Below, one piece after another: positions 368 through 41,233 of a stretch of DNA of 64,000 nt. Under the pieces are notes generated by a model. The model worked only from the letters and a program-made list of their open reading frames with translations, made no database searches and had not been told where the DNA came from. The position numbers and the translations under genes were made by a program. The DNA comes from Candidatus Nomurabacteria bacterium (lineage in GTDB: Bacteria; Patescibacteriota; Minisyncoccia; Phycocordibacterales; UBA9973). Location: assembly GCA_943354905.1 (NCBI GenBank), contig CALRDL010000002.1, positions 6,478 to 70,477 on the forward strand, read 5' to 3'. How positions within the stretch are numbered: the stretch's first letter is position 1; every line of letters begins with the position of its first letter.

Positions 368-955
368 ATGAATTCACGAGCCGTTGTATTTTTTGGACGA
401 TCTGGTTGTGGGAAAGGTACTCAGGCCAAACTCTTGGCCAAGTATTTTGAATCTCAAGGTCGAGAAGTGATCTATGTCGAAACAGGTAGTACTTTTCGAG
501 AAATCACAAAGCAAGACAACTTATTAGGTAAAAATGTAAATAATATCCTATCCAACGGATTTCTTATCCCAGTTTTTTTGCCTATATGGATATGGACAGG
601 GATTATTGTTCAAAAATTTACTGGAAATCAAGATATGATATTTGATGGAGTTTGTCGCAGAAAAGAAGAATCAGTAGCTCTAGATTCTCTTTTTGATTTT
701 TATAAAATTGATAACCCAAATATCATTTTGATGAATGTTTCCAAAGATTGGTCTTATACAAGGATGATGGAGCGAAAGCGAGCCGATGATACGCCGGAAA
801 AAATCCAAAATAGACTCGATTGGTATGAAAAAGATGTTATTCCGTCTGTCGATCATTTTCGAAATAGGTCTGAATATAATTTTATTGAAATCAACGGAGA
901 ACAAAGTATAGAAAAAGTCCACGAAGATATTATTAAAGCTTTAGTATTTAATTAA
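368..955 (+). CDS. adk: Adenylate kinase
   Basis: P-loop GRSGCGKGTQA. An FDGVCRRKEES segment corresponds to the NMP-binding LDGFPR region, and the C-terminal R..DD..E....RL..Y pattern fits the LID/core region. Confidence 0.75.
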   Translation: MNSRAVVFFGRSGCGKGTQAKLLAKYFESQGREVIYVETGSTFREITKQDNLLGKNVNNILSNGFLIPVFLPIWIWTGIIVQKFTGNQDMIFDGVCRRKEESVALDSLFDFYKIDNPNIILMNVSKDWSYTRMMERKRADDTPEKIQNRLDWYEKDVIPSVDHFRNRSEYNFIEINGEQSIEKVHEDIIKALVFN

Positions 956-959
956 TTTT

Positions 960-1640
960 ATGGAAGAAACAATTATAATTTCGCTTGGAGGGTCTATGAT
1001 AATTCCAGAAGAAATAGATGTAGATTTTTTGCGTGAATTTAAATCCTTAATTCTTTCGCACGTAGCCAAAGGTAAAAAGTTTGTGATTATTTGTGGAGGA
1101 GGGAAAATAGCTCGCAAATATCAGGCAGTTGCGAAAATTTTAACTGAACCAAAGGATATAGATCTGGATTGGATCGGTATTGCATCTCTGAAATTAAATG
1201 CCGAACTTTTAAGAGTGATTTTTGGAGAATATGCTCACGACGTAGTAGTTTCAGACTTAAGAAATCCTATTATTTTTAATAAACCAGTGTTAGTGGGTTC
1301 TGCTCATCAACCGGGATGGAGCTCTGATATGGATACTGTTTGGGCGGCACAAACAGTTGGTGCAAAGAAATTAATTAATCTTTCCAACGTAGACCATGTT
1401 TACGATGCTGATCCCAGAATAAATCCAAATGCTAAAAAACTAGAGAATATTTCATGGGCTGATTATAGAAAAATTATTCCTAAAGAATGGACATCCGGAT
1501 TAAATTCTCCGTTCGACCCAATAGCATCCGAGCTTGCTCAAAAAGAGGGGATAAGTGTGATGATAATGAACGGCAAGCCACTCGACAATCTCAAGAATTA
1601 TCTAAACGGCGAAAAGTTTGAGGGAACAATAATTTCGTAA
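960..1640 (+). CDS. Amino-acid-kinase-fold protein, probably UMP kinase (archaeal-type PyrH-like)
   Basis: Carries IISLGGSM and ICGGGKIARKY glycine-rich motifs typical of the carbamate/UMP kinase fold. Its position next to adk supports a nucleotide kinase. Confidence 0.5.
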   Translation: MEETIIISLGGSMIIPEEIDVDFLREFKSLILSHVAKGKKFVIICGGGKIARKYQAVAKILTEPKDIDLDWIGIASLKLNAELLRVIFGEYAHDVVVSDLRNPIIFNKPVLVGSAHQPGWSSDMDTVWAAQTVGAKKLINLSNVDHVYDADPRINPNAKKLENISWADYRKIIPKEWTSGLNSPFDPIASELAQKEGISVMIMNGKPLDNLKNYLNGEKFEGTIIS

Positions 1641-1653
1641 GTTTTAAAATTTT

Positions 1654-2442
1654 ATGATTATCATAAAAACAAAAGAAGAAATAGAAATCCTTCGCGAAGG
1701 GGGGAGGAGGTTGGCGACTGTGCTTCAAAAATTGAAAGCCAAAGTTGCTTCTGGAATTTCTACTAAAGAACTCGACCTTTATGCAGAGAAATTAATTCGT
1801 GATGGTGGAGACGAGCCAGCTTTTTTGAATTATCGTCCCAGTGGAGCTAAGTCTCCATTTCCGGCGTCGCTTTGCGTATCTGTAAATGATGAAGTCGTTC
1901 ATGGGATTCCAAATAAAAATAAAATTTTAAAAGAAGGGGATATTGTTTCACTGGATTTAGGGATTAAACACAGAGGGTTGTTTACAGATAGTGCGATCAC
2001 TGTTCCTGTCGGGAATATTTCTTCAGGATCAGAGAAATTATTAGAAGTTACCGAGAGAGCTTTGTATGTCGGGATCGAGTCGGCTATAGCTGGAAATACA
2101 ACAGGGGATATCGGTTATGCCATCGAACAATTTGTACATTCTCGACCAGATAAAAATAAAAATCAGCAATATGGGATTGTTGAAGTTTTGGCTGGGCATG
2201 GAGTGGGGAAATATATTCACGAAGATCCATATATTCCGAATTTTGGGAAAAAAGGTAAAGGCGAAAAACTCGTTCCCGGAATGGTAGTCGCTCTCGAACC
2301 AATGTTAAACAACGGCACGAAGAATGTCACCATCGATGACGACGAATGGACTTTCCGTACAGCTGACGGCAAAAGAAGCGCGCACTTTGAACACACTATA
2401 CTTATCACTGAAAGCGAGGCCCAGATATTAACAAAAGTTTGA
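1654..2442 (+). CDS. map: Methionine aminopeptidase type I
   Basis: 262 aa with the pita-bread fold signatures: IKTKEEIEILREGGR, metal-ligand context HGIPN, D..DLG, and the C-terminal HFEHTI. Confidence 0.85.
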   Translation: MIIIKTKEEIEILREGGRRLATVLQKLKAKVASGISTKELDLYAEKLIRDGGDEPAFLNYRPSGAKSPFPASLCVSVNDEVVHGIPNKNKILKEGDIVSLDLGIKHRGLFTDSAITVPVGNISSGSEKLLEVTERALYVGIESAIAGNTTGDIGYAIEQFVHSRPDKNKNQQYGIVEVLAGHGVGKYIHEDPYIPNFGKKGKGEKLVPGMVVALEPMLNNGTKNVTIDDDEWTFRTADGKRSAHFEHTILITESEAQILTKV

Positions 2443-2527
2443 TTTAGTGGTAATATTATATAAAGAAATTTATGCTACAAAAAACTATAAAATCAGTGAT
2501 TAAAATTTCTTTTAATTAAAATAGTAT

Positions 2528-3514
2528 ATGGAAAATTTTTTACCAGATACAGCTCCAGTGTTATCTAAAAATAGTAGTAATTTGGAAAATAAAGAACAGG
2601 AATTTATTTATGAGTTAAGAGATGTTGAGGGCGGCGTCCGATGTAATATTAAAGTAACATTCATTAATGAAACTTTGCCTGAGTCTTTACAAGGCAGAAA
2701 TTGCAAGGTCTTGAAAAGAGTGTTGAGGATGTCTTTCGAGGGAGCTAAGTCAGTTGATATTTTTGCTTTATGTAAAAAATCTGAAGCAACTAAAGTTTTT
2801 TTTACTGATGATGATTACCGTTATGAACATACAACTGATGAAGTATTTATTCCTGAATTTAAAACCTTGATTGATTTATATATTGCCTTTCATGAAATTG
2901 GTCATGCTGTTCAGTACAAAGAAGATATATTTAAAAATGCATGCAGGCATGGAAAATTTTTAGATATTGAAAATTTTGCACCAGCTGTTTTGTTGGCGCG
3001 AGAGAAACGAGTTGCAATTCCTATGGCTGATGAATTCTTGAATGAACTTATGCAATACTCAGTTGAGTATAATAGATATTGTCAAAGAAATATAGATGGT
3101 TCTTTAACAGAAGATGACCATATAGGATGTGAAAGTGAAAATATAAAGTTTACAGATTTTTTAAAAGAACATGAAATTAAAGAAAGTTTAGTTTCATTGA
3201 TATCTTATGAGTTGCCAAGAAGTATCTTTGAGCGAGACGCTACATTAAGGGCAATGGTTTGGGTACGCAAGGCTTCACAAGAATTGCATATTTCTTTAAA
3301 TTTTAAAACTAAAAGAAGTGATGTTGTTGTTCTCGATGAGATGTCTAAAGAATTAACTAAATGCTTAGAAGAAGATGATGTTCCTGAAGAGGTACAGGAA
3401 GCTATTTTAAGAGTTTGTGGAATGGGAAATGTTGGAGTCAGAGAAGTGATGAACTTAGCGTTATTAACTCAAGAGTCTGATAAATCTGTTCATAAATTTT
3501 TTAATGATAAATAG
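2528..3514 (+). CDS. Hypothetical protein with an HExxH motif (possible zincin-like metallopeptidase)
   Basis: Only an FHEIGHAVQY motif is recognisable; there are no other family signatures. Confidence 0.3.
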   Translation: MENFLPDTAPVLSKNSSNLENKEQEFIYELRDVEGGVRCNIKVTFINETLPESLQGRNCKVLKRVLRMSFEGAKSVDIFALCKKSEATKVFFTDDDYRYEHTTDEVFIPEFKTLIDLYIAFHEIGHAVQYKEDIFKNACRHGKFLDIENFAPAVLLAREKRVAIPMADEFLNELMQYSVEYNRYCQRNIDGSLTEDDHIGCESENIKFTDFLKEHEIKESLVSLISYELPRSIFERDATLRAMVWVRKASQELHISLNFKTKRSDVVVLDEMSKELTKCLEEDDVPEEVQEAILRVCGMGNVGVREVMNLALLTQESDKSVHKFFNDK

Positions 3515-3586
3515 TTTTATAACAGAACTTACGCTCTCCCACAAAATAATACAAACATAATACCACATTTTTGTTAAATTTAGTTT

Positions 3587-3614
3587 GACAAAGTTTTTAC
3601 ATTGTATATACTGG
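3587..3614 (+). promoter_or_regulatory. Near-consensus sigma70-type promoter (TTGACA-N16-TATACT) upstream of the toxin-antitoxin pair
   Basis: The sequence tagtTTGACAaagtttttacattgtaTATACTgggtatt sits directly 5' of the 3602 ORF start. Confidence 0.4.
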
Positions 3615-3895
3615 GTATTATGAATACAATGATTACAATTCGGACAGATGCAGATTTAAAAAATCAAGCACAAAACCTTGCTGAAAGGTTAGGTATTTCT
3701 ATTTCTGCAATAGTAAATAATTCTTTAAGAGAATTTGTTCTTAATAAGAAAGTTGTTTTCGCTGAACCTTTGACTTTAAATATTGCTACAAGAAAGCGTT
3801 TAGATAAAATAATTAAAGAAATAGATAAGGGAAAAAATCTTTCTAAATCTTTTTATACAGCAAAAGATGCTATAGCACATCTGAAAAGTCTATAA
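3602..3895 (+). CDS. Type II antitoxin, DinJ/RelB-like (ribbon-helix-helix)
   Basis: The N-terminus ITIRTDADLKNQAQNLAERLGISISAIVNNSLREFV is RHH/DinJ-like. It lies immediately upstream of a RelE/YafQ-like toxin. Confidence 0.6.
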   Translation: MYILGIMNTMITIRTDADLKNQAQNLAERLGISISAIVNNSLREFVLNKKVVFAEPLTLNIATRKRLDKIIKEIDKGKNLSKSFYTAKDAIAHLKSL

Positions 3896-3901
3896 AATTA
3901 A

Positions 3902-4159
3902 ATGAAGATCAATTTTCATAAAAGTTTTGATAAGATGTTTGCGAAATTACCAAAATTTGTTAAAGAAAAGTTTTACATTAGACTTGAAATTTTCTCCCTC
4001 AATATCAATAATCCATTATTAAATATTCATCCACTAAAAGGTAAACGGAGAGGGCAATGGAGTATAAATATAACAGGGGATTGCAGAGCTTTATACATAG
4101 AGCAAGAAGATGGGGTGATTTTTTTAGAAATCGGCACGCATCCACAATTATATGAATAA
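3902..4159 (+). CDS. Type II toxin, RelE/YafQ (ParE superfamily) mRNA interferase
   Basis: 85 aa with HPLKGKRRGQWSINITGDCRALY, the conserved core of YafQ/RelE toxins. It sits 6 bp after the antitoxin gene. Confidence 0.65.
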   Translation: MKINFHKSFDKMFAKLPKFVKEKFYIRLEIFSLNINNPLLNIHPLKGKRRGQWSINITGDCRALYIEQEDGVIFLEIGTHPQLYE

Positions 4160-4365
4160 ATTTGAATACTTTTTAGCCACACTATTTTGATTAGAGAAGG
4201 AGAGGTGGAGATTTTGACGAAGATATAAAATATGAAATTTCATTCGATTGAAGATTTGAGAAATGGCTAATATCTAGTGTTTATGGAAATTATTCGACAT
4301 CCTGATATCATTAAAGATTTTAAAAAATTAGATAGAAATCCCTCACCCATGCTACAATATCTTAG

Positions 4366-7131
4366 ATGGATAAATCTTTTTTAAAAGATATGCCTAAGTT
4401 TAAGACTCCTGAAGAGGAGCTGGATTATCTGCGTGCCCATGTCGCCAAGCGTGAAGAAGAACTCATCAAGATAGGGCATATAGAACACGCTAAAGACAAC
4501 GCTACCATAGATGTGATTGAAGAATACAAAGATGCTCCGATAGAAAATGTAATCGAGGAGAGTCATAGACTTGACTCGAAACAAACAGAAGGTATAGTGT
4601 TAGCTCTCAAGCCCGAGAGTCATGACATTATTATGGAAGAGCTTTTAGGGCTAGTCATTACGAAGGGCATAAAGAATGCTTTGTCGGTTGTAGAAAATAT
4701 GGATAGTCCTCATATAGAAGATGATTTTCATAGAATACTTATTCAATATTTAAAAACAGGGCAAATAAATTTTCAATTTAAAGAAGGGACACCAATGTAC
4801 AAATCTTTAAATATGACTTTGTTTGAGATCACTCTTCCACCGCCTACGGATGAAATAGACAAGTCGAAAGGTTTTAAAGAATTTATCGGGGCAATGGAAC
4901 AATTTTATGCAGGAATGCATTCTATTTCGCAAGGCAAAAATAACAAAGAAGAAAATTATTTTACACTCGAGATTGCCCTGAGCGATGAGAGTGATGAAGT
5001 CATAATCTACGCTAGTATTCCAAACAAACACATCACCCTTTTTGAAAAACAGATTTTAGCATTTTATCACAATGCCAAAGTTAGCGAAGTTCCGGATGAC
5101 TACAACATCTTCAACGAGCAAGGCGCATCCGTGGGTGCTTATGCATCTTTTGCTGAACGAGGAGTTATGCCGATCAAGACTTATGACAACATCGAACACG
5201 ATCCGATGAACACTATCTTAAATGTTTTTTCTAAATTAAAAACCAAAGGTGAGGGTGCGGGGATTCAGCTCGTGATAGCTCCTGCTGGAGATCAGTTTAT
5301 AAATGAATTTCACAAAATTTTAGATGATGTAAAGGATGGACTTTCTGTAAAAAATGCTTCTGATAATTTTTATAAATTCAATAGTGCTTTTATGAAGATA
5401 GGCAAAGAATTCATATTTGGAACAAAAAAAGCACCAGAAGAAAATAAGGAACGAAATATGAAGGGCAGGAGAGCTGTAGACGAAGGAGCAGTGGAGAAAA
5501 TAGGTAATAAGACAAAGAGCACGATCATGAAGGCAAATATTCGGGTGGTGGCTTCAGCCGAAACAAAATCTCGAGCAGAAGAGATCTTGAAAGAACTGGA
5601 ATCTTCTTTTCATCAATTTTCTGAACCTGCTAGCAATTCTTTCTTTTTCGAACAAGCTCATGGTAGCAATTTGAAAAAGTTTTTTCATGATTTCTCATAT
5701 CGTTCTTTTTCACCTGATAAAATATTGCCGATGAATTTGAAAGAACTTTCTTCAGTTTTTCATTTTCCAGTAGGCATAGGTAGCCAGCCCCAACTCAAAG
5801 AAGCAAAGGCTGGCATCGCTCCGGCACCACTTGAGATGGGCCACGATGGAGTAACTCTTGGCATAAATGATTATCGAGGTAAAAAAACAGAAGTAAAACT
5901 CGCTCGTGAAGACCGTATGCGACATTTTTATGTTATTGGTCAGACTGGTACTGGTAAAACAAATATAATGTTGAATATGATAACTCAAGATATTAAAAAT
6001 GGAGATGGATGTTGTTATATAGATCCACACGGGACAGATATTCAAACCATCCTTTCTCGTATTCCAAAAGAGCGTATCGATGATGTCATATACTTTGATC
6101 CAGCATATACTGCGCGTCCTATGGGGCTGAATATGCTCGAGTATGATCTAAGATATCCAGAACAAAAGACTTTTGTGGTCAATGAACTCATGGGTATTTT
6201 TAATAAACTTTTTGATATGAAAGCCGGAGGTGGAGCTATGTTTGAACAATATTTCAGAAATAGTGCTTTCTTGGTGATGGAAGATCCAGAATCTGGCTCG
6301 ACATTGCTCGAGATCACTCGAGTTCTCGCTGATAAAGAATTTCGTGATATGAAACTCCAGAAATGCAAGAATCCGATCATTAAACAATTTTGGGTTTCAG
6401 CCGAACAGACGACAGGGGATCAAAGTCTCGCCAACTTCGTGCCATACATTTCTTCAAAGTTCGATAACTTTATCAGCAATGACATCATGCGTCCGGTTGT
6501 TCTCCAGCAAAATTCTGTTTTTAATTTTAGAAAAATAATGGACGAAAAGAAAATTCTTTTGGTAAATCTTTCCAAGGGTCGTCTCGGGGATATCAATGCG
6601 AACTTGATCGGCTTAGTCCTTGTCGGCAAGATCCAGATGGCGGCGCTTTCTCGCGTTGATATGTTTGGGAAACATATGAATGATTTCTATTTATATATCG
6701 ACGAGTTTCAAAACGTTACCACTGATTCTATCGCTTCTATTTTATCTGAAGCACGCAAATATAGACTTTCGCTTAATATTGCTCATCAATACATCTCTCA
6801 GCTTGAAGACAATATTAAAAATGCAGTTTTTGGAAATGTCGGCTCGATCGCAGTATTTCGTGTTGGGACCGAAGATGCGACTTTTCTCGAGCCAAAATTT
6901 AAACCTCAATTTACTGCTTCTGATATTACTAAATTAGACAATTTCAATGCTTATATGAGTATGCTGATCAAAGGTCAACCGACTAAGCCGTTTAATATTG
7001 CGACCATCGCTCCAGAAAAGGGTAATCCCGAAATAGTAGATAATCTCAAAGAACTTTCGTATGTAAAATATGGTCGTGATCGAGCCGAAGTCGAAGCCGA
7101 AATCATGGCGAAGTATCAGACGATGGAGTAA
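4366..7131 (+). CDS. Large P-loop ATPase of the FtsK/HerA/TraG-VirD4 (DUF87/AAA_10-like) superfamily
   Basis: 921 aa. Walker A is HFYVIGQTGTGKTNIM at about aa 520 and Walker B is FYLYIDEFQNV. The ~500-aa N-terminal soluble region has no recognisable motif. Confidence 0.5.
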   Translation: MDKSFLKDMPKFKTPEEELDYLRAHVAKREEELIKIGHIEHAKDNATIDVIEEYKDAPIENVIEESHRLDSKQTEGIVLALKPESHDIIMEELLGLVITKGIKNALSVVENMDSPHIEDDFHRILIQYLKTGQINFQFKEGTPMYKSLNMTLFEITLPPPTDEIDKSKGFKEFIGAMEQFYAGMHSISQGKNNKEENYFTLEIALSDESDEVIIYASIPNKHITLFEKQILAFYHNAKVSEVPDDYNIFNEQGASVGAYASFAERGVMPIKTYDNIEHDPMNTILNVFSKLKTKGEGAGIQLVIAPAGDQFINEFHKILDDVKDGLSVKNASDNFYKFNSAFMKIGKEFIFGTKKAPEENKERNMKGRRAVDEGAVEKIGNKTKSTIMKANIRVVASAETKSRAEEILKELESSFHQFSEPASNSFFFEQAHGSNLKKFFHDFSYRSFSPDKILPMNLKELSSVFHFPVGIGSQPQLKEAKAGIAPAPLEMGHDGVTLGINDYRGKKTEVKLAREDRMRHFYVIGQTGTGKTNIMLNMITQDIKNGDGCCYIDPHGTDIQTILSRIPKERIDDVIYFDPAYTARPMGLNMLEYDLRYPEQKTFVVNELMGIFNKLFDMKAGGGAMFEQYFRNSAFLVMEDPESGSTLLEITRVLADKEFRDMKLQKCKNPIIKQFWVSAEQTTGDQSLANFVPYISSKFDNFISNDIMRPVVLQQNSVFNFRKIMDEKKILLVNLSKGRLGDINANLIGLVLVGKIQMAALSRVDMFGKHMNDFYLYIDEFQNVTTDSIASILSEARKYRLSLNIAHQYISQLEDNIKNAVFGNVGSIAVFRVGTEDATFLEPKFKPQFTASDITKLDNFNAYMSMLIKGQPTKPFNIATIAPEKGNPEIVDNLKELSYVKYGRDRAEVEAEIMAKYQTME

Positions 7132-7134
7132 TTT

Positions 7135-7710
7135 ATGGAAGAATTTGAGATAAAATTTTTAGAGGTGGATGTGCCTGCTTTAGAAAAGAAGCTTGTGGAA
7201 ATAGGCGCAGAAAAAGTGGGGGAGTTTGACTATCTTAGAAAGATTTTTTATTTTAATGAAAATCATGTAGGTAGTGAAGATGGATGGATCAGAGTCCGTA
7301 CTGATGGCAAAGAAACTACTTTAACTTATAAAAAAAGTATAAAAGAAAAATTAGAAGATGGTACTGTAAAAAATACAGGTATGAATGAGATAGAGGTAAT
7401 AGTAGATGATTATGAAAAGACTTGTGAGCTTATAAATGCTATGGGGCTCATTTTGAATAAAACAGAAAAAAATAAAAGAATACGATACTCTAAAGGAGAT
7501 GTAGTTTTCGATATAGATTTCTGGCCATTTATTCCCACGTATTTAGAAATTGAATCTAGTTCATATGAAAAAACAAAAATTGCTGCGATAGAAATCGGTT
7601 TTGATCCAAATTTAGGAATTATAGGTAGTGCAGGTAGTGTTTATAAAAAATATGGTTTCAATATTAATGACTATTCTGCTATAACTTTTGAGGGTATGAT
7701 AAAGAAATAG
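7135..7710 (+). CDS. CYTH-domain protein (CyaB/triphosphate-tunnel metalloenzyme family), paralogue 1
   Basis: Starts EFEIKFLEV (the E-x-E-x-K signature) and continues ...GWIRVRTDG...TLTYK...YLEIE, which is the typical CYTH strand pattern. Confidence 0.6.
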   Translation: MEEFEIKFLEVDVPALEKKLVEIGAEKVGEFDYLRKIFYFNENHVGSEDGWIRVRTDGKETTLTYKKSIKEKLEDGTVKNTGMNEIEVIVDDYEKTCELINAMGLILNKTEKNKRIRYSKGDVVFDIDFWPFIPTYLEIESSSYEKTKIAAIEIGFDPNLGIIGSAGSVYKKYGFNINDYSAITFEGMIKK

Positions 7711-7772
7711 ATTTTGCAAAAAGGCTTTTTTCTGATAGGATAAGGATATTATAATATTAATTTTGAATTCAT

Positions 7773-8294
7773 ATGACACAAGAAAAGACATTGATAATTT
7801 TTAAGCCAGATGCTGTTCAGAGAGGTATCGTCGGAGAGATATTGGCTCGTTTTGAAAAAGTAGGACTCAAGATAGTCGCTGCTAAAATGCTCCAACCTGA
7901 CCAAAATCATTATTTCCATCATTATGAAAATATAGGTAAAATGGTTTCTCGTCGTGGACAAAAAGCCTTTGATGTAACTCTCGAAATGATGAACGCTGGT
8001 CCAGTCATTGCTTTTATCTTGGAAGGTATAGAGGCGGTTGCTCTCGTGCGCAAGATGGTGGGATCTACAGAACCAAAGAGCGCCCTTCCAGGCACTGTTC
8101 GAGGAGACTACTCTCACATGAGTTTTGCTCACGCAGATGTAAATGAGATAGGGATACCAAATCTAATGCATGCTTCCGGAGATGTTGAAGAAGCTAAATC
8201 CGAGATAGCTCACTGGTTTGCTGAGTCAGAACTTTTTGACTACGAAACTACTCACGAAAAATTTACTCAAGTAAAAAAGTCTCACAAAAAGTAA
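7773..8294 (+). CDS. ndk: Nucleoside diphosphate kinase
   Basis: Contains LIIFKPDAVQRGIVGEIL and the catalytic-His region (H..) NLMHASGDVEEAKSEIAHWF. Confidence 0.9.
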   Translation: MTQEKTLIIFKPDAVQRGIVGEILARFEKVGLKIVAAKMLQPDQNHYFHHYENIGKMVSRRGQKAFDVTLEMMNAGPVIAFILEGIEAVALVRKMVGSTEPKSALPGTVRGDYSHMSFAHADVNEIGIPNLMHASGDVEEAKSEIAHWFAESELFDYETTHEKFTQVKKSHKK

Positions 8295-8297
8295 TTT

Positions 8298-8328
8298 AAA
8301 AAACGTCCCGCATAAAGCGGGGCGTTTT
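8298..8328 (+). terminator. Rho-independent terminator after ndk
   Basis: The sequence aaaaACGTCCCGCataaaGCGGGGCGTtttaa is a 9-bp GC-rich stem followed by a T run. Confidence 0.6.
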
Positions 8329-8344
8329 AAGTTATAATATCTGT

Positions 8345-8899
8345 ATGTACGAAGTTGAAATTAAATCAAAACTAAAAGATCGAGAAACAGTTGTAGCCAA
8401 GCTAGAATCTTTGGGTTGTAAGTTTGGGCCGGAGCTTCATCAGGCTGACCACGTCTTTACACCCAAAGGAACATTTCTGCCGAGAAGTCCTTTGGGAAGC
8501 CCAGCTTTACGAGTGCGAAAACAAAATGATAAATATATTTTTACTTTAAAAATTTCTCAGTCTAATCATCAAGATTCTATTGAAAGGGAAATGGAAATTG
8601 GGGATGGCAAGATGATGATTGAAATCCTAGAACTCATGAAATGGAACAAAATGCCAATCGTAGAGAAGCGAAGAATTAAAACAAATTTTAAAGATATGGA
8701 AATAGTATTAGATACTGTCGAAAATCTAGGTGAATTTATTGAAGCCGAAAAAATAGTTACCGAAGAAAGCAGGGAAGCTAGAGCTAAAATTCAAGAAGAA
8801 TTGTTGGATTTTTTAGAGACAGTCGGAATTCCAAGAGAAGATCAGATTATAGATGGGAAATATGATATTATGCTTTATGAGAAGTTGAATGGAAGATAA
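8345..8899 (+). CDS. CYTH-domain protein, paralogue 2
   Basis: Starts YEVEIKSKL and continues ...ALRVRKQNDKYIFTLK...FIEAE, the CYTH pattern. Confidence 0.6.
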   Translation: MYEVEIKSKLKDRETVVAKLESLGCKFGPELHQADHVFTPKGTFLPRSPLGSPALRVRKQNDKYIFTLKISQSNHQDSIEREMEIGDGKMMIEILELMKWNKMPIVEKRRIKTNFKDMEIVLDTVENLGEFIEAEKIVTEESREARAKIQEELLDFLETVGIPREDQIIDGKYDIMLYEKLNGR

Positions 8900-9452
8900 A
8901 ATTATGTCTATTAAAATAACTTATTTTGTACATGGGACTACTACGGATAATGAGAAACATATTTCTTCAGGCTGGTATGATGTGGAACTTTCGGAGCTGG
9001 GAGTACAGCAATCCAAAGAATTACGGGAACAGGTAGAAGATGAAGTTTTTGATGTGGTTTTTTGTTCGGATTTAAAGAGAGCAGTAGATTCTGCACATTT
9101 TGTTTTCGAAGGAATATATCCGATTATTCTTGATGCTCGACTTCGCGAATGTAATTACGGAAAATTAAACGCCTCACCAAATGCTGTTGTCGAACCGTTG
9201 TGCGAAGACGAATGTATCTATAATAAATTCCCCGACGGGGAGAGTTATGAAGATGTAAAAGCTCGCATGGCGGACTTTCTGGAATTTCTAAAAAAGAATT
9301 ATGATGGAAAACATATAGCCATCGTAGCTCACAAAGCTCCACAGCTTTCTCTCGATGTATTATTAAAAGGTTATACATGGGAAGAAGCTTTAGCAAAAGA
9401 TTGGCGTAAGACAAAATCATGGCAACCAGGGTGGGAATACCAATTAAATTAA
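8889..9452 (+). CDS. Histidine phosphatase family protein (phosphoglycerate-mutase-like)
   Basis: The N-terminus ITYFVHGTTTDN is an RHG-type catalytic motif variant, and the overall size fits the family. Confidence 0.55.
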   Translation: MEDKIMSIKITYFVHGTTTDNEKHISSGWYDVELSELGVQQSKELREQVEDEVFDVVFCSDLKRAVDSAHFVFEGIYPIILDARLRECNYGKLNASPNAVVEPLCEDECIYNKFPDGESYEDVKARMADFLEFLKKNYDGKHIAIVAHKAPQLSLDVLLKGYTWEEALAKDWRKTKSWQPGWEYQLN

Positions 9453-9475
9453 CAGCCAGTGCCTTAGACTCTGTC
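9453..9475. repeat. REP-like 23-bp element, left copy (CAGCCAGTGCCTTAGACTCTGTC)
   Basis: The reverse complement recurs at 10161-10184 (one mismatch), and a third inverted copy lies inside the transposase ORF at 9669-9689. Confidence 0.6.
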
Positions 9476-9497
9476 TATATTATGCTATACTTAACTA

Positions 9498-10172
9498 ATG
9501 AGAAAACAACCAATAGTAACAGGTGAATATTATCACGTATATAATCGTGGCGTAGATAAAAGGGATATTTTTAATGATAATAATGATTTATACCGTTTTG
9601 TTGAGAGTATTTACGAATTTAATAAAATTGAAACAATAGGAAGCATAAGAGATGCGAGAAAGAATAAAACAGAGTCTAAGGCACTGGCTATGTTGTCTTT
9701 TGAGCCATTGGTTGCGATCGTTGCGTATTGTATTAATCCAAATCATTTTCATTTTGTGTTAAAACAACTAGCAGATGGTGGAATATCTAAGTTTATGCAA
9801 AAACTCCAAGGAGGATACACTTATTTTTTTAATGTGAAACATTCTCGAACGGGTTCTCTTTTTCAAGGTACTTTTAAATCACATCACATGAGTAGCGAAA
9901 ATTACTTCAATAAAATCCTCGGGTATGTAAATAAAAATTATCAAGTTCATAGTATTCCCAAAAAAAAGATGAGTTTTATTTTAGCTGGTGATTATGAGTA
10001 TGAGAATAATAATTTCAAAATTATCTCAAAGATAGAAGGTAAAAAATTTTTAGTGATTTTTGATGGACCCAAAAGTTTTAAAAAACATTGTGATGAGATG
10101 GTGGATATTGTAAGACAAGAAAGAGGTAAACTTTCGCTATTAGAAGAAGATAATTTACCAGACAGAGTCTAA
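9498..10172 (+). mobile_element. IS200/IS605-family Y1 (HuH) transposase, RAYT-like (REP-associated tyrosine transposase)
   Basis: Carries the YHVYNRG motif, the HuH motif HFHFVL, and the distal G.LFQG.F...H region typical of Y1 transposases/RAYTs. It is flanked by inverted REP-like 23-mers. Confidence 0.6.
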
Positions 10173-10184
10173 GGCTCTGGCTGG
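10161..10184. repeat. REP-like element, right (inverted) copy
   Basis: GACAGAGTCTAAGGCTCTGGCTGG is the reverse complement of the 9453-9475 element. It contains the transposase stop codon. Confidence 0.6.
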
Positions 10185-10231
10185 AGGGTTTTTGATGGTA
10201 AGTATGATATTATGCTTTATGAGAAGTTGAA

Positions 10232-10873
10232 TTGGAAATAAATTTTATGGAAAACCTAACAAATCTTTTTAAAATAATGCAGTTGACTCGTTCGATGCCT
10301 CAATACGGCTACGTAGTGGCAGGGATTAAGCAGAATGATTTAAGTAATTTGGCTGAGCATCATTATCTGGTGACATTCATTGCCTGGCAAATAGCTCTAT
10401 CTCTGAAAGAAAAAGGAGCGAATTTAGATATATTGAAAGTTTTAGAAATATCAATGGTGCATGATGTTGGGGAATTATTTGGTGGAGATGTCTCTTTTCA
10501 TTACGGCCGAGCACATAAAGTTGCAAGACAGAAAGCTAAGGAATTTGAAAAAGAAAATGTTCTATTTTTGAGTAGATTTTTTAATAAGCCAGAAAAGTTT
10601 TTGGAATTAAATTCTTTAGAGCGTGAAGAAGTAACTTCCGATGAAGCTATCATATCACGTTTTGCTGATCTCATAGAATGCATCTATTACAAAATGACTT
10701 TAGATAAAGTTACTCCAAAGGATATCGAGGAGACGGTGGAAGCTTTAAAGGCTAGAGCACTAGAAGCAAAAGATGAAATCACTAAAAAAGAATTATTAAA
10801 TTTTCTGGATGCTTTCTCTGGAGTTCTGGATGGAAAAAGCGTGCAAGATATTATTTGGGATAATAAAGATTAA
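10232..10873 (+). CDS. HD-domain phosphohydrolase (YfbR-like 5'-deoxynucleotidase family)
   Basis: The HD motif context is AEHHYLV...MVHDVGELFGGD, and the size (213 aa) fits. Confidence 0.55.
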   Translation: MEINFMENLTNLFKIMQLTRSMPQYGYVVAGIKQNDLSNLAEHHYLVTFIAWQIALSLKEKGANLDILKVLEISMVHDVGELFGGDVSFHYGRAHKVARQKAKEFEKENVLFLSRFFNKPEKFLELNSLEREEVTSDEAIISRFADLIECIYYKMTLDKVTPKDIEETVEALKARALEAKDEITKKELLNFLDAFSGVLDGKSVQDIIWDNKD

Positions 10874-10877
10874 TTTT

Positions 10878-11416
10878 ATGCAAGAAATTGAAACAAAAGT
10901 TTTGGAGGTTAATGTAGAAGAAATAAAAGTAAAGTTAAAAGACTTAGGGGCAAAAGAGACTCAAGACACTCGCCTTGTTGTTGATTGGTATTGTCCAAAG
11001 GGGATAGCCATACCGAACATCCTTGGTATCTTCGTGTGCGGACCACAACCGACGGCAAGAGTGAGGTGAGTTGGAAATCTTTACCGAAGATAGTAGGCAA
11101 TACTCGACATTCGGATGAAGTGAATATAAATGTTTCTGATGCAGTGATGGCCGGGAAACTTTTAAAAAATATTGGACTTGAAAATTATGCTCATCAAGAG
11201 AAAGATAGAATTTCTTTTACACTCAAGGATTGGAATTTTGACTTAGATCAATATCCGGGCATGCCAGCATATCTCGAGATCGAGGGGACTAGTCACGAAC
11301 ATGTGCAAGAGGCTATAAAAATTTTGAATTTAGAAAATCATACAAGCATCGGTGATGGTGAGAGAGTTTTGATAGAAAAGAAATACGGGCTTGATTGGTA
11401 CAGTATGCGTTTTTAG
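10878..11416 (+). pseudogene. CYTH-domain protein, paralogue 3, interrupted by a frameshift near 10,990-11,010
   Basis: The CYTH N-terminus MQEIETKVLEV... is in one frame (ORF 10809..11069). The continuation ...WYLRVRTTTDGKSEVSWKS...YLEIEG is in another frame (ORF 10985..11416). Confidence 0.5.
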
Positions 11417-11627
11417 ATTAATTTTTTTTGAGATAATTTAGATACAAAAAACTAGTTCTGTCTAGTTGCATATGTTTTAAGGTTTGTTACAATTTTAGTA
11501 GGGTTATTTCTGATTATTACCTAGAACAATAATTTATGGGAGTCTCGATTGGGTTAGACCTTGGTCTCTCGCATCTGACACCCACTTAGCTTTAAGCTAT
11601 GGTAATATTTCTGAAATAGTCCTAAGA

Positions 11628-11655
11628 AGCACCCCCGGTATACGGGGTTTTTTCT
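11628..11655 (+). terminator. Hairpin plus T-tract (cacCCCCGgtataCGGGGtttttt); a terminator or the 3' element of a small RNA or leader
   Basis: A GC stem followed by six T lies 7 bp upstream of the next start codon. Confidence 0.35.
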
Positions 11656-11661
11656 TACAAA

Positions 11662-12105
11662 TTGGGATATAATACTAAAATGGATAGAAAAAAATTATTA
11701 ATTCGAATAGCTTCGCTTATCTTTTTTATTTTTATATTAAATTATTTGGCTGGAAAGTTTTATTGGTATTCGGCTATATGGTATTTTGATATAATCATGC
11801 ATTTCTTGGGTGGTTTATGGGCAGGACTCGCTTCTATTTGGTTTTTTTCTCGCATTAGCGATAGCTTTAGCGATTCTCTCAGCTCTATTTCATTCAATAT
11901 AGTCCTGAAAATTCTTCTAGGTGTTTTAGTTATAGGCATAGCTTGGGAGATTTTTGAATTATATTTTATAAATCACATTGCCAGCAATCCTTTCGATCTT
12001 CTTGATACTATCTCTGACATATTTTTTGATTTATCTGGTGGCCTTTTTGCTATTTTGTATTTCTTTAATCAAATTATGCCAAAGAACAAAAATAAGGTAG
12101 AATAA
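11662..12105 (+). CDS. Small integral membrane protein (hypothetical)
   Basis: Four hydrophobic segments and no recognisable motifs. Confidence 0.3.
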   Translation: MGYNTKMDRKKLLIRIASLIFFIFILNYLAGKFYWYSAIWYFDIIMHFLGGLWAGLASIWFFSRISDSFSDSLSSISFNIVLKILLGVLVIGIAWEIFELYFINHIASNPFDLLDTISDIFFDLSGGLFAILYFFNQIMPKNKNKVE

Positions 12106-12110
12106 AGGTT

Positions 12111-13475
12111 ATGCAGAATAATGTAAAGATAACTTTTTGTGGAGGAACCGGCTCAGTAACTGGAGCCAATTTTTTATTGGAAATAGATGGCAAAAAAATC
12201 TTGATAGATTGTGGACTTACTCAAGGTAACAAGATCGCTGACGATACAAACTGGGATCCTTTTATCTATGATGCGAAAACCATAGATATACTTTTTATAA
12301 CTCATGCTCATATAGATCATTTAGGTAGAGTGCCAAAACTAATCCATGAAGGTTTTGTGGGGAAAATATATTCTACCGTACCTACCAAATCTCTAGCTCT
12401 GCCTATGCTCGAAGATACCGCTGGAATATTATCCAAAAATACTGAACTCAAATTAGACGAAGTATATTCAGCTGAGAATATAAAAACTTCTCTTTCCTTG
12501 TGGCAGGGCTTTGACTATCATGAGAATTTACAAATCACTCCGGAGTTAGAAGTATCATTTTATAATGCTGGGCACATTCTCGGCTCAGCTATGATTTTAT
12601 TTGTATATAAAGGCAAAAAGATTCTTTTCACTGGAGATCTAGGGAATAGCCCTTCTCCACTTTTGCCAGATACTGAAAAAGTTCCTAATGTTGATTATCT
12701 AATCATGGAGTCTGTGTATGGCGACAGGAATCACGAATCTAGAGACGAACGACGCAAGTTTTTAGAAGAAGTTATAGAAGATAATTATAAGCGAAAGGGT
12801 ACTCTGATCATTCCTACATTTTCTCTCGAACGTTCCCAAGAACTTCTCTTTGAATTAAATTCTTTAGTAGAAGGAAATAGAATTCCTGTTATGCCTATCT
12901 TTTTAGATTCACCACTCGCTATCCGCCTAACAGAAGTTTTCAAGAAACACAAAGATTATTTCAACGAACAAGCTCAAAAGGCTATGTCGAGTGATAAATA
13001 TTTATTTAATTTCCCTGGTCTTCGACATACTCTAAAATCAGAAGAGTCAAAAATGATTAGAAGCGTCCCGAATCCCAAGATAGTCATTGCTGGGAGCGGT
13101 ATGTCGACTGGCGGACGAGTGGTCCATCATGAAAGGCATTATTTGCCTGACCCGAACAACACTCTACTTCTTGCGGGGTATCAATCTGTAGGCACTCCAG
13201 GACGCTTGATTCAAGAAGGATTGAAGACCATACGCATCACGGGGGAAGAGGTAGAAGTCAGAGCGCATATTGTAAATATTTTTGGATATTCCGGACACAA
13301 AGATTCCAACGGTCTCTTAAATTTTGTAGAAGATATGCAAGAAACACTCAAAAAAGTTTTTGTAGTGATGGGAGAGCCAAAGAGCTCTATGTTCCTTGTT
13401 CAAAAATTGCGTGACAATCTGGCCATCGATGCTGTCGCTCCGGAGCAAGGGAGTAGTGTGGAATTAGATTTTTAA
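12111..13475 (+). CDS. Beta-CASP MBL-fold ribonuclease (RNase J/CPSF73-like)
   Basis: Metallo-beta-lactamase motif 2 is FITHAHIDHLG. The 454-aa length and the distal beta-CASP-type GHSGH-like region (FGYSGHKD) fit the family. Confidence 0.6.
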   Translation: MQNNVKITFCGGTGSVTGANFLLEIDGKKILIDCGLTQGNKIADDTNWDPFIYDAKTIDILFITHAHIDHLGRVPKLIHEGFVGKIYSTVPTKSLALPMLEDTAGILSKNTELKLDEVYSAENIKTSLSLWQGFDYHENLQITPELEVSFYNAGHILGSAMILFVYKGKKILFTGDLGNSPSPLLPDTEKVPNVDYLIMESVYGDRNHESRDERRKFLEEVIEDNYKRKGTLIIPTFSLERSQELLFELNSLVEGNRIPVMPIFLDSPLAIRLTEVFKKHKDYFNEQAQKAMSSDKYLFNFPGLRHTLKSEESKMIRSVPNPKIVIAGSGMSTGGRVVHHERHYLPDPNNTLLLAGYQSVGTPGRLIQEGLKTIRITGEEVEVRAHIVNIFGYSGHKDSNGLLNFVEDMQETLKKVFVVMGEPKSSMFLVQKLRDNLAIDAVAPEQGSSVELDF

Positions 13476-13498
13476 AAAAATAAATGTATAATTAGATC

Positions 13499-14101
13499 AT
13501 GCTTTCATCTTTAAATTTTGAAAAAAAACACGGACACAATCAAATAAAAATTTGCGTTTCTGGCGCGGCGGAGACTGGGCACTGTGGGATAGATGCGCTT
13601 GAGAAAGCTAAAGAGCTTGGCCGAGAGATAGTTCGTCAAGGCGCGGTCTTAGTTTCTGGCGCGACTACCGGCTTTCCACTTTGGGCTGCTATGGGCGCAA
13701 AAGAAGAGGGAGGTATCTCTATAGGTATTTCTCCAGCAGCTTCCGAGAAAGAACACGTCGAAGTCTACAAACTTCCACTGGATTATATGGATTTAATTAT
13801 CTATACAGGATTCGGGTATCCTGGGCGAGATATTCTCCTTACTAGAAGCTCAGATGCTGTCATATGTGGTTGTGGGCGAGTGGGGACTATACATGAGTTT
13901 ACTGTCGCATTCGAAGATGGTAAACCCATTGGAATATTTGAAGGTCCTTGGGAGATGGGGGATCAACTCAAAGATATAATCGAGAAAGGTCATCGTCCCA
14001 ATGCCAAGATAGTTTCTGGAGATGATCCTAAAAAACTAATAGAAGACATAATCATTTTGGTTAAAAAAGATAAAATATCTGAATATAAGATAGTTACCTA
14101 A
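13499..14101 (+). CDS. TIGR00725/LOG-like Rossmann-fold protein
   Basis: Contains ICVSGAAETG...LVSGATTG...GFPGRDIL..., the pattern seen in LOG/DprA-like SLOG proteins. Confidence 0.45.
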   Translation: MLSSLNFEKKHGHNQIKICVSGAAETGHCGIDALEKAKELGREIVRQGAVLVSGATTGFPLWAAMGAKEEGGISIGISPAASEKEHVEVYKLPLDYMDLIIYTGFGYPGRDILLTRSSDAVICGCGRVGTIHEFTVAFEDGKPIGIFEGPWEMGDQLKDIIEKGHRPNAKIVSGDDPKKLIEDIIILVKKDKISEYKIVT

Positions 14102-17252: not shown

Positions 17253-17647
17253 GAGTGGAACTGACGAGAATTGAACTCGTGTGCAATAGGTTTTTGTAAA
17301 GAAGTCTACATACATAGCATGCTTTTCTGTTTAAATTAAAATATTCTTAAGCAAGCGAAATATATTTTAATCGAGCTCTAAGTTTTTGTGAAATGCTCGA
17401 GCAAACATTTCCTTATCCCGATAATATTACACCTCTACTCATATATCGGAAGTCTATAAGAGAGACGCCAGCTCAGGCTTACGCGAAAGCTGGAGCGAAA
17501 GCAAAATCATTCATACCGAAGTATGGTGACGCTTTAGCCTTAGAAGTCAATTTTGCAATTAACATTTAGACAAATTTTTACGAGATTATGTCTATGCTCG
17601 ATACGCATCTTTGACAAATAGGCCTACTGTCTATGCCTTGCAGTCCC
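17253..17647 (-). ncRNA. ssrA: Candidate tmRNA (ssrA)
   Basis: On the minus strand the 5' GGGACTG pairs with the 3' CAGTTCC to give a 7-bp acceptor stem with a G3:U70 wobble, the Ala identity element. The T-arm is ACGAG-TTCAATT-CTCGT followed directly by CAGTTCC-A. The gene lies immediately downstream of smpB. An internal ORF ends ...NDFAFAPAFA-TAA, a Mycoplasma-like tag ending. Terminator-like hairpins follow at 17174-17205 and 17228-17248. Confidence 0.55.
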
Positions 17648-39620: not shown

Positions 39621-41198
39621 ATGAACAAACCAAAATATTTTCTCTATGCTCGCAAGTCCACAGAAGATGATGACAGACAAGTCATGTCCATTGAAGCACA
39701 GCTTTTTGAATTGCGTGAATTTGCGAGCAGAGAAAATCTTGAAATTCTTGAAGAATTTCAAGAGTCAAAAAGCGCAAAGAGTCCGGGACGAAGTGTCTTC
39801 GGCGAAATGATGAATAAAATTGAAAGTATGGATGGTGTTGGTATTCTTGGATGGCACCCGGATCGTTTAGCGAGAAATTCAATTGACGGTGGACGCATCA
39901 TTTATGCCGTAGACACTACAAAAATAGTTTCTTTACGCTTTCCGACATTTTGGTTTGAACCCACACCGCAGGGGCTGTTTATGCTTCAAGTGGCATTCGG
40001 ACAAAGTAAATATTATTCTGACAACCTAAAACAGAATGTTGAGCGAGGTTTTCGCCAAAAACTGCGACGAGGTGAATGGCTAACGCGCGCGCCATTTGGT
40101 TATGTGAACAATTTAATTACGCACAATATTGAACCTGATCCGGTGAAATCTAAAATCATCGTGCGCGCGTACAAAGCGTACGCAACAGGTTCACATACTC
40201 TCGTTTCGTTATCGCAGTTTTTGGCGGAACATGGTGTTGTCCAAAAGTCCGGAACGCCACTTGTCAAAGCTTCCGTGCAAAGAATGTTATCCAATCGCGC
40301 ATATCTCGGCCTCGTCAAACACCACGGCGAGTTCTTCACCGGAAGCTTTGCGTCAATTCTTTCTCCAACACTATTTGAAGCTGTGCAAAAAGTTTTAGAG
40401 AGACGAGCACATCCGAGACATAGCAAGATATCTCACAATTTTCCATTCACCGGTCTTTTTCGATGCGCTGAATGTGACAGTATGATTTCCGCACAATGGG
40501 CAACTGGAAAATGTGGTGGGCGGTATCGGTACTATCGATGCTCGAAAAAACGCGGTGTCTGTTTACAAAAATATCTTCGTGAAGATCTGCTCGTCTCCCA
40601 AATCAGAGAACAGCTTCAAGCAGTGTCGCTTCCCGAAGAGTGGTCGGATTATATGCTCAAAAAGGTAGAAAGATTTGAGCATGAAGAAACCAACGCTTCA
40701 GAAAGTCGGCTCGGGCAGATGAAAGAAGATTTAAAAATGCTTGAAGCGAAACTCGACGCATTAGTTGATTTATACTTAAACAAAGATATTGAAAGAGAAA
40801 TATATTTAGTGAAAAAAGATATTTTAATGCGTCAAAAAATCTCGCTTCAAGCCAAATCTTCATCTACCCGAGCCGAGAGAAAGAATTGGGTCGAACCCCT
40901 GCGGAAATGGATTTTGGATTCAAAACACGCGGGGTTTCTCGCTACGAGTGAAAATCTCCACGAAATGAGAGATTTTCTTCGTTCCTTTGGAACGAACCCC
41001 GCGCTGAATGACAAAACTATTTCAATCTCATTTTGCCCGCCCTCCATTTTCACCTGCACCCGCAAGGCGGATTTCATTTCATCACTTCATACCGCGCCTT
41101 TGGCGCGCCCGCTTTTTTCGCTTTCTGCCGAGGAAGTTTCAATTTGCGGACAGAGTGAGATTCGAACTCACGGTCCTTTTAAGGGGACGGCGGTTTAG
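39621..41198 (+). mobile_element. Large serine recombinase (resolvase/invertase catalytic domain plus recombinase domain plus zinc ribbon). The annotated C-terminus reads through the right inverted repeat and tRNA, so the true stop is uncertain
   Basis: Catalytic-Ser motif YARKSTEDDDRQVMSIEAQ, resolvase fold (GILGWHPDRLAR), and zinc ribbon CAECDSM...CGGRYRYYRC. Confidence 0.7.
41018..41149. repeat. Right terminal inverted repeat of the serine-recombinase element, ending exactly at the 3' end of the minus-strand tRNA
   Basis: Reverse complement of 39453-39591. The last bases (..ATTTGCGG) overlap the tRNA acceptor/discriminator. Confidence 0.75.
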
Positions 41199-41233
41199 TA
41201 AACCGCTCCCGTAAACCACTTGGGTATCTGTCC
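41147..41233 (-). tRNA. Type II (long variable arm) tRNA, Ser-like, with apparent anticodon ACT (unusual); CCA not encoded
   Basis: Minus strand: acceptor GGACAGA/TCTGTCC with discriminator G, D-stem CCC/GGG, anticodon stem-loop GCGGT-TTACTAA-ACCGC, long variable hairpin GTCC..GGAC, T-arm GTGAG-TTCGAAT-CTCAC. Confidence 0.45.

Follow-up and report, generated by a model that had tools for sequence, protein, structure and literature searches.

Does the occurrence side by side of three genes for triphosphate-tunnel (CYTH) proteins in a bacterial genome point to a dedicated metabolic or signalling system? The question is raised by positions 7135–11416 of a 64,000-nucleotide stretch of contig CALRDL010000002.1 from Candidatus Nomurabacteria bacterium, the whole of which we call the window. 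The CYTH genes, here termed C1, C2 and C3 in their order along the DNA, are interleaved with ndk, which encodes nucleoside diphosphate kinase (NDK), and with genes for a histidine phosphatase and an HD hydrolase. An original prediction made from the sequence alone suggested that the set could be a dedicated cluster for (poly)phosphate or nucleotide-signal metabolism. The explanation that we favor, with a probability of roughly 0.6, is that the region is a variable patch of nucleotide-housekeeping genes in a genome of the candidate phyla radiation (CPR), and not a signalling system. The constant feature is ndk, standing in a variable slot that collects nucleotide-phosphate enzymes preferentially, though not exclusively. 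Rather than a fixed operon, the CYTH trio is the fullest state of this slot, and a rare one.

The six genes named in the original prediction all score above Pfam gathering thresholds, and their identities are thus upheld. For the CYTH family (PF01928, cut-off 23.2 bits) the scores are 34.6 bits for C1 (7135..7710, plus strand, 191 aa), 61.6 bits for C2 (8345..8899, plus strand, 184 aa) and 38.2 bits for the joined protein of C3 (10878..11416, plus strand), which is an interrupted gene; the C-terminal open reading frame (ORF) of C3, at 10985–11416, scores 26.5 bits alone. The N-terminal ExExK signatures that had been read in the translations are confirmed as MEEFEIK (C1), MYEVEIK (C2) and MQEIETK (C3). 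Interleaved with these on the plus strand are ndk (7773..8294; PF00334, 129.1 bits), encoding an NDK of the 173-aa type with the active-site histidine in its NxxH(G/A)S motif (...PNLMHASGD...); a gene for a His_Phos_1 phosphatase of histidine phosphatase superfamily branch 1 (8889..9452; 103.2 bits); and one for an HD_3/YfbR-like phosphohydrolase that resembles 5′-deoxynucleotidases (10232..10873; HD_3 39.9, YfbR-like 33.8 against a cut-off of 25.9, and HD 23.6 bits). The NCBIfam 5′-deoxynucleotidase model gives the HD protein 24.8 bits, far under its cut-off of 122.

By their sequences the three CYTH genes appear to be anciently diverged, with no recent duplicates among them. BLASTP identity is 31% between C1 and C3 and 26% between C2 and C3, that between C1 and C2 is not significant, and the CYTH ORFs of each relative sort cleanly into three orthologous groups. 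The motifs are E3xE5xK7, W51xR53xR55 and E138xE140 in C1; E3xE5xK7, A54xR56xR58 and E133xE135 in C2; and E3xE5xK7, D36xY38, Y51xR53xR55 and E134xE136 in C3. The ExExK glutamates, RxR and ExE are invariant across the orthologue alignments of C1 (A4), C2 (A5) and C3 (A1), and in the 14 sequences of A4 the invariant positions are E3, E5, W51, R53, R55, E138 and E140. The full DxY motif is present in C3 only, the corresponding residues being IxY in C1 and DxV in C2.

Classification was made by ranking of profile matches in the PDB together with motif tests, in place of a formal phylogeny against CyaB, thiamine triphosphatase (ThTPase) and inorganic triphosphatase references. The best match of all three families is SaTTM, a triphosphate tunnel metalloenzyme (TTM), with E values of 1.2e-11 (7ns8) for C1, 8.5e-19 for C2 and 1.8e-9 for C3. 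An AlphaFold2 model of C3, the paralogue that was modelled (pLDDT 91.8, pTM 0.85), has the eight-stranded β-barrel tunnel fold with a C-terminal plug helix. Its top Foldseek match is SaTTM (7nsd, E 9e-12, TM 0.81), and the top 26 PDB matches are all TTM/CYTH structures.

Could the CYTH proteins be class IV (CyaB-type) adenylate cyclases (AC-IV), with the cluster producing and breaking down a cyclic-nucleotide signal? Some annotation speaks for this. C2 scores 75.3 bits against the TIGR00318 "cyaB" (class IV adenylate cyclase) model, above the cut-off of 57.95, while C1 (38.5 bits) and C3 (37.9 bits) fall below it; the C2 profile matches the AC-IV of Yersinia (3N0Y) at 2.9e-10; and homologues of C3 carry the JGI label "adenylate cyclase class 2." The published motifs that separate AC-IV from triphosphatases and ThTPases are HFxxxxExExK, loss of the first arginine of xRxR to a small neutral residue, and ExA in place of ExE (PMC8233210), and C1, C2 and C3 fail all three. 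The ExExK motif occupies residues 3–7 in each protein, with only two residues ahead of the first glutamate, which leaves no space for HF; neither C1 nor C2 can be extended upstream in frame, and extending C3 in frame 0 gives KINFMQEIETK. All three retain the two arginines of xRxR and the ExE motif. SaTTM, to which all three are closest among solved structures, was itself annotated as a cyclase, yet it hydrolyses inorganic triphosphate (PPPi) ∼19-fold better than nucleoside triphosphates (NTPs) and forms no cAMP (Vogt et al., 2021; PMC8233210). Evidently the TIGR00318 model also captures SaTTM-like triphosphatases. No gene for a cyclic nucleotide-binding protein or phosphodiesterase was seen in the neighborhood. 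We therefore regard cyclase function as highly improbable, and the nucleotide-signal part of the original prediction falls with it.

Judged by the motif test, the name cyaB for C2 would be wrong. Retention of the full two-metal triphosphatase set of residues (ExExK, RxR and ExE) makes triphosphate hydrolysis, and not cyclization, the most likely chemistry, and by their sequences the three proteins would be competent catalysts that have diverged in the substrates they recognize. On the motif test we treat them as triphosphatases, and their presence does not serve as evidence for cAMP production by these CPR genomes. The public annotation of these proteins as "adenylate cyclase class 2/IV" needs correcting.

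A variable slot beside ndk

The homologues of C3 and NDK carry the names Candidatus Nomurabacteria, Paceibacterota or Minisyncoccia. A first set of related loci was anchored on C3, and comprised 23 loci from GTDB species representatives and 5 from exact-protein look-ups. The order of a type IV coupling protein (T4CP)-like ATPase, C1, NDK, C2, C3, a DUF2238 protein and a metallo-β-lactamase (MBL) protein recurs in these loci, with C1 and C2 present or absent, and all three CYTH genes are found in 10 of them. C3 is the best conserved of the three CYTHs among the relatives. In a Nomurabacteria locus (L024, 8283–8495) C1 is cut to a remnant of 71 aa, 76% identical to C1 of the window, in what appears from its sequence to be a second case of CYTH decay in the slot, alongside that of C3 described below.

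Since a sample anchored on C3 is biased toward C3, we re-sampled using as anchor the conserved RNA that lies downstream. This gave 63 metagenome loci showing both the end of the T4CP-like gene and the RNA. In 45 of the 63 ndk stands alone in the slot, without any CYTH gene; at least one CYTH is present in 15, and all three in a single locus. The other occupants include HD proteins (6 loci), adenylate-kinase-like proteins (5) and HAD phosphatases (4), together with further HD_3 proteins, two Nudix, one HIT and one Maf. The conserved backbone is thus the T4CP-like ATPase, ndk, the RNA, and then DUF2238 or the β-CASP gene, with CYTH genes scattered patchily over it. The nucleotide and phosphate character that had been proposed for the neighborhood holds, given that the slot accommodates CYTH, HD, His_Phos, HAD, Nudix, HIT, Maf and adenylate-kinase-like proteins; the dedicated, fixed cluster does not, the CYTH genes being individually dispensable.

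The NDK itself occurs in two forms. Each of the 23 C3-anchored relatives has in this slot an NDK of 194 aa, to which the 173-aa protein of the window is only ∼33% identical. We considered whether NDK had been replaced in the window, and rejected this: the 173-aa form is itself a common type in Paceibacteria and Nomurabacteria, with homologues that are 80–88% identical. As it is widespread, two NDK types alternate at one slot position. Between ndk and C2 lies a GC-rich hairpin (8304..8324; CGTCCCGC-ATAAA-GCGGGGCG, with A6/T4 flanks), listed by a terminator scan as a minus-strand terminator (8321..8307); in sequence it looks like a weak or bidirectional terminator.

The window also contains a seventh gene that was absent from the original prediction. 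This is an ORF (9498–10172) resembling Y1_Tnp and REP-associated tyrosine transposases, inside a Y1 (HUH) transposase-like element at 9453..10183 on the plus strand (Y1_Tnp 30.2 bits, cut-off 23; NCBIfam REP_Tyr_transpos 28.7 bits, under its cut-off of 80). Hairpin-forming repeats of 21–24 nt accompany it in three copies: inverted upstream (9453–9476), internal (9669–9689) and at the 3′ end (10160–10183), where none would be expected by chance. A Y1_Tnp domain flanked by hairpin repeats is the arrangement of IS200/IS605-type or REP-associated elements. The same three-copy layout surrounds the Y1 genes of four related loci (L018, L009, L029 and L005), with hairpin sequences that differ by lineage, which points to an element of the IS200/REP type, co-evolving with its hairpins and recurrent in this neighborhood. 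The Y1 element is an interloper, outside the metabolic set.

Its insertion has left a scar. In the local REARRANGEMENT, direct repeat D1 pairs 8847–8903 with 10189–10245; the two copies of 57 nt are 86% identical, and 95% within a core of 39 nt. The second copy (10189..10245, plus strand) is a relic of the 3′ end of C2 that encodes FDGKYDIMLYEKLN, and it lies immediately upstream of the start of the HD gene. The presence of the C2 3′ end on both sides indicates that His_Phos and Y1 (8904–10188) were inserted together into a former C2–HD junction; the start of His_Phos according to the gene caller in the Logan and ENA copies corresponds to 8904 in the window. Within the explanation that we favor, His_Phos is best understood as having arrived together with the hairpin-flanked Y1 element. 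Among the relatives the His_Phos–Y1–HD block of the window is found in L007 only, and the place of His_Phos varies, being before C3 in L003 and L007 and after C3 in L026.

We noted separately that the canonical RHG catalytic motif of the phosphatase is replaced by VHG, which is kept in three orthologues, and that the rest of the core residues appear to be there; no NCBIfam equivalog matched this protein at cut-off.

An alternative is a dedicated pathway or operon in which the CYTHs, NDK, His_Phos and HD work one after another on a single class of substrate, such as inorganic tri- or polyphosphate or one nucleotide, and are maintained together by selection. The cluster genes are indeed co-directional with short gaps, and the terminator scan found no strong plus-strand terminator between 7135 and 11416. 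The C1–NDK–C2–C3 order recurs in the 10 loci that have the trio, and in two distant, rearranged loci (L022 and L025) C3 and a C2-like CYTH are still near each other and near the T4CP-like gene. Set against this, each member is dispensable, and all combinations of zero to three CYTHs occur; His_Phos and Y1 are a recent insertion; HD is found at this position in the window and L007 only; and the loss of C3 is tolerated by this strain. Genes of the polyphosphate kinase or exopolyphosphatase (ppk/ppx) type are absent from the scanned ORFs of the window (368–14101) and from the slot ORFs examined in relatives. A dedicated pathway therefore appears unlikely, and the secondary insertion of His_Phos with Y1, together with the lack of ppk/ppx-type genes, argues in the same way against a dedicated cluster.

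The slot is preceded by genes for ribosomal proteins, secY, adk, a gene for a pyrH-like kinase, map and the gene for the 921-aa T4CP-like ATPase; downstream are those for the DUF2238 membrane protein, a β-CASP MBL nuclease and a SLOG/LDcluster4 protein, with rplT-rpmI-infC on the other strand. CYTH, HD, MBL and SLOG proteins can all occur in anti-phage defence systems. We rejected this candidate, as none of the cluster genes is matched by PADLOC and their surroundings are those of a ribosomal and housekeeping string. The ATPase (4366–7131) is T4CP/HerA-like, with matches to TrwB_AAD_bind, TraG-D_C and DUF87 and a precomputed DUF8128 assignment, and ends 4 nt upstream of C1. It is a constant neighbor. 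Its identity is 52–92% within the lineage, and 38% in distant loci which are rearranged but still have CYTH genes nearby.

Interruption of C3 and the favored explanation

The original prediction held that the third CYTH gene changes frame near 10,990–11,010, and is either decaying or an assembly error. The frame change is real, and its source lies 1–2 nt beyond that range. Frame 0 from the ATG at 10878 stops at 11069, and the remainder of the domain is read in the −1 frame to 11416. Alignment to the DNA of two homologues (P0001 and P0002) shows that frame 0 is still correct through ...CPKGIAI. A codon-level comparison with 13 intact homologues places a single-base deletion within 11010..11013 on the plus strand. 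Where the nearest homologue (L029) reads GCC ATG ACC GAA CAT CCT TGG TAT the window has GCC ATA CCG AAC ATC CTT GGT AT, so that one base is missing at 11011/11012 (ATGACC to ATACC), outside any homopolymer.

A search with the joined C3 sequence gave 478 homologues, the best intact ones being 179 aa long, with 84–85% identity. C3 is intact in all the relatives found, as one continuous ORF of 179–181 aa. The sole match closer than 85% is the truncated 116-aa ORF of the window itself, and among 5.8 billion clusters there is no intact C3 allele above 85% identity.

The lesion was judged from assembled contigs, including MEGAHIT-style ENA contigs from two analyses. It is found identically in ENA ERZ27280310 and ERZ27280224 and in the Logan per-run assemblies of ERR5863117 and ERR3719140, so that at least four other assemblies carry it; the matches are 99.97–100% identical over 1.3–17.8 kb, and the lesion string is the same in all four loci from these assemblies (L001, L031, L032 and L033). 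A sequencing or consensus artefact in a gene that is intact in the organism might be entertained, given that contigs so nearly identical could derive from one population or study and that C3 is otherwise perfectly conserved in appearance. For this to be so the same 1-nt gap would have to arise in the source contig, in the ENA contigs of two analyses and again in two runs that were assembled separately, at a site that is not a homopolymer, with no intact near-identical protein in the 5.8-billion-cluster database. We regard this as very improbable, and since separately assembled contigs share the lesion we treat the deletion as real in this strain and not an assembler error. Decay is thereby favored over misassembly. 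C3 carries no further lesion and retains every one of the 57 residues that alignment A1, of 30 sequences, shows as invariant; the deletion is thus recent, and the broken gene is presumably non-functional.

Might full-length C3 nevertheless be made by −1 ribosomal frameshifting? An A_AAG_GGG heptamer at 10997..11003 (plus strand) is, in frame 0, a perfect X_XXY_YYZ site with exact −1 re-pairing. The deletion lies 8 nt farther on, and a hairpin (11010–11029) is placed 6 nt downstream of the heptamer. Slippage here would swap three residues of a variable loop (KGIAI to KGDSH), giving the trans-frame peptide …CPKGDSHTEHPWY…. The deletion completes the ATACC...GGTAT stem, with a folding energy of −5.2 kcal/mol compared with −3.9 for the homologue sequence; AAG and GGG are minority synonymous codons (20% and 16%); and the lack of further lesions in C3 would be in keeping with continued expression. 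However, in-frame X_XXY_YYZ sites occur at 1.3% per codon in the window, giving 0.36 expected in the 28-codon overlap. The 7-bp hairpin is a weak one, and shuffled sequences fold about as well as the region does (z −1.07). The site is not conserved, both the heptamer and a frameshift being absent from the relatives. For these reasons we set programmed frameshifting aside as the principal explanation, give frameshift rescue very little credence, and regard the heptamer as a coincidence.

Taken as a variable patch of nucleotide-housekeeping genes, the locus might work in the following way. A conserved string that runs from a ribosomal-protein operon through secY, adk, pyrH, map and the T4CP-like ATPase to the slot, and then to a small RNA, DUF2238, the β-CASP nuclease and the SLOG protein, would carry a slot that tends always to hold ndk, to which lineages would add dispensable enzymes that cleave or transfer nucleotide phosphates. 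In the window these additions would be the three single-domain CYTHs, the HD_3/YfbR-like nucleotidase, and His_Phos with its Y1 element. The CYTH proteins would remove the terminal phosphate of PPPi, an NTP or dNTP, or another organic triphosphate, to give diphosphate and Pi with no formation of cAMP. Their substrates probably differ: C2 has a small residue in AxRxR, as do inorganic-triphosphatase types such as SaTTM, and C1 and C3 have in W/YxRxR an aromatic residue whose counterpart in thiamine triphosphatases stacks on the organic moiety. Around the CYTH reactions the NDP and NTP pools would be re-equilibrated by NDK, and the enzymes together would trim or sanitize the pools of tri-, di- and monophosphates in a salvage-dependent organism. 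The new loss of C3 through a 1-nt deletion would then be one instance of repeated gene loss in the slot. The gene identities, the motifs, the fold of C3, the deletion with its reproducibility and the patchy distribution are direct observations; the catalytic activity, the substrate differences, the metabolic role and the loss of function of the broken C3 are what we infer.

Several points weigh against this explanation. C2 lies above the NCBI cyaB equivalog threshold; prediction of CYTH substrates from motifs is a published heuristic; the aromatic residue of W/YxRxR could serve another role; and the similarity of C1 to solved ThTPases is just E 0.06–0.16. Toxin–antitoxin genes and a transposase are also found in the slot, as is an arginine-biosynthesis operon in one locus; enrichment of the slot for nucleotide enzymes was judged by inspection, and its contents are also compatible with a plain insertion hot spot. 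Lastly, with no second lesion and all family-invariant residues kept, function of C3 by some rescue is conceivable, and the runs sharing the deletion may not be independent biological samples.

A recurrent variable slot beside ndk in Paceibacteria bears on how nucleotide-scavenging ultra-small bacteria tune their nucleotide pools, and three paralogues that differ at the specificity position provide a compact natural test set for substrate choice by CYTH enzymes. Our search of the literature on CYTH in Patescibacteria, TTM plus NDK, 6S RNA in CPR and DUF2238 riboswitches found nothing relevant.

A conserved RNA downstream of C3

The 245-nt spacer that follows C3 holds an element that is far better conserved than the flanking proteins. 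This is a structured RNA of ∼158 nt on the plus strand (11497–11654), situated between C3 and DUF2238. It is preceded by a promoter-like site TTG-N-TAnAnT (11466–11493), has a core of ∼135 nt closed by a 12-bp stem, and ends with a variable GC hairpin and U-run (11633–11654) in the manner of an intrinsic terminator. Across 115 non-redundant sequences the pairing of the proposed helices is 96.8%, compared with 33–47% when the partners are slid, and there are 308 double-change (compensatory) cells compared with 10–46 in the slid controls. Searched with a covariance model, the window yields one copy, on the plus strand, at 172 bits against 39 for the antisense. Searches of the window and eight related loci with Rfam 15 gave no match to the RNA at gathering score, nor at E ≤ 1–5. 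The RNA always lies upstream of either DUF2238 (87 loci) or the β-CASP gene (23 loci).

The predicted shape is a rod with a large central bubble, and a second variant (17 of the 115) has a longer apical arm. The terminator stem varies freely and has no covarying partner in the invariant core. Directly after the RNA U-run there is an extended −10-like element (11655–11682), which is TGnTAnAAT in relatives and GATATAAT here, ∼5–8 nt before the ATG of DUF2238 at 11680; its position suggests that the DUF2238 mRNA may be leaderless or nearly so. In view of the free terminator stem and the apparent −10 element of DUF2238's own, we lean toward a stand-alone small RNA. By its rod and bubble shape it is a candidate 6S-like RNA, or alternatively a novel riboswitch.

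A conserved inverted repeat (consensus TTCAGAAACAAAAAATTnTTTCTGTCTAG) is present at 11440–11465 and in related loci, just upstream of the promoter-like site of the RNA. It is kept even where the upstream gene differs, and may be a terminator of the upstream gene or an operator.

The RNA is probably more novel than the CYTH cluster, and may be of wider interest. Elsewhere in the window there are a tRNA-Ile with anticodon UAU (20587–20661) and a tmRNA on the minus strand (17253–17647), together with two tRNA-Ser calls made by ARAGORN only (41146–41233, minus strand; 41334–41423, plus strand) and absent from Rfam at gathering score.

Likeness to known tunnel enzymes

The mammalian 25-kDa thiamine triphosphatase (PDB 3BHD, 5A64) shares the CYTH fold, ExExK and ExE with the proteins of the window. 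An aromatic residue in W/YxRxR has been treated as diagnostic of ThTPases (PMC8233210), and W53xR55xR57 of the mammalian enzyme is matched by W51xR53xR55 of C1 and Y51xR53xR55 of C3, invariant or near-invariant in their orthologues, whereas C2 has A54. A possible reading is that C1 and C3 form a CPR-restricted subgroup of tunnel enzymes that combines a core of the SaTTM/CyaB type with a clamp of the animal ThTPase type, and that they are specific hydrolases of an organic triphosphate. The substrate would then be either thiamine triphosphate, formed by adenylate kinase as a by-product, or a particular (d)NTP, and the three paralogues with NDK would constitute a triphosphate-sanitizing module in organisms living on salvaged nucleotides. 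Were this true, a bacterial enzyme of the ThTPase type would be new. Yet C1, C2 and C3 are ∼40 residues shorter than the mammalian protein, and bacterial. For C1 the ThTPases rank below SaTTM and Pyrococcus proteins, at the marginal E values given above, and they are absent from the lists for C2 and C3, so that the PDB profile searches reveal no closer relationship to known ThTPases than to other TTMs. We consider such a subgroup doubtful.

The AC-IV enzymes (Aeromonas CyaB and Yersinia pestis AC-IV; PDB 2FJT, 3N0Y) have the same fold and belong to the same parental sequence cluster, and C2 comes close enough to them to pass the TIGR00318 threshold. None of the features that mark AC-IV is found in C1, C2 or C3, and by the published criteria these are not cyclases. 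For two inorganic triphosphatases of bacteria, NeuTTM from Nitrosomonas (PDB 2FBL/3TYP) and YgiF of E. coli (5A60), the same TTM chemistry is expected, PPPi being converted to PPi and Pi. YgiF ranks ninth in the fold search with C3. Both are more distant in sequence (NeuTTM E 0.17 with the C2 profile, YgiF E 0.1–0.2), and YgiF carries an added CHAD domain, which is not present here.

The closest likeness is to SaTTM (Saci_0718) of Sulfolobus acidocaldarius (PDB 7NS8/7NS9/7NSD), which is also a single-domain CYTH protein of ∼180 aa and shares ExExK, RxR and ExE with all three paralogues. C3 shares in addition the DxY water-positioning motif, which C1 (IxY) and C2 (DxV) lack in its full form, and its Y132 and Y170, invariant in A1, are the counterpart of the SaTTM aromatic pair F133/Y168. 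At the W/Y position SaTTM has alanine, as does C2 but not C1 or C3. SaTTM differs in being archaeal and thermophilic, with only ∼19–26% identity to the putative triphosphatases described here, which occur as three paralogues side by side.

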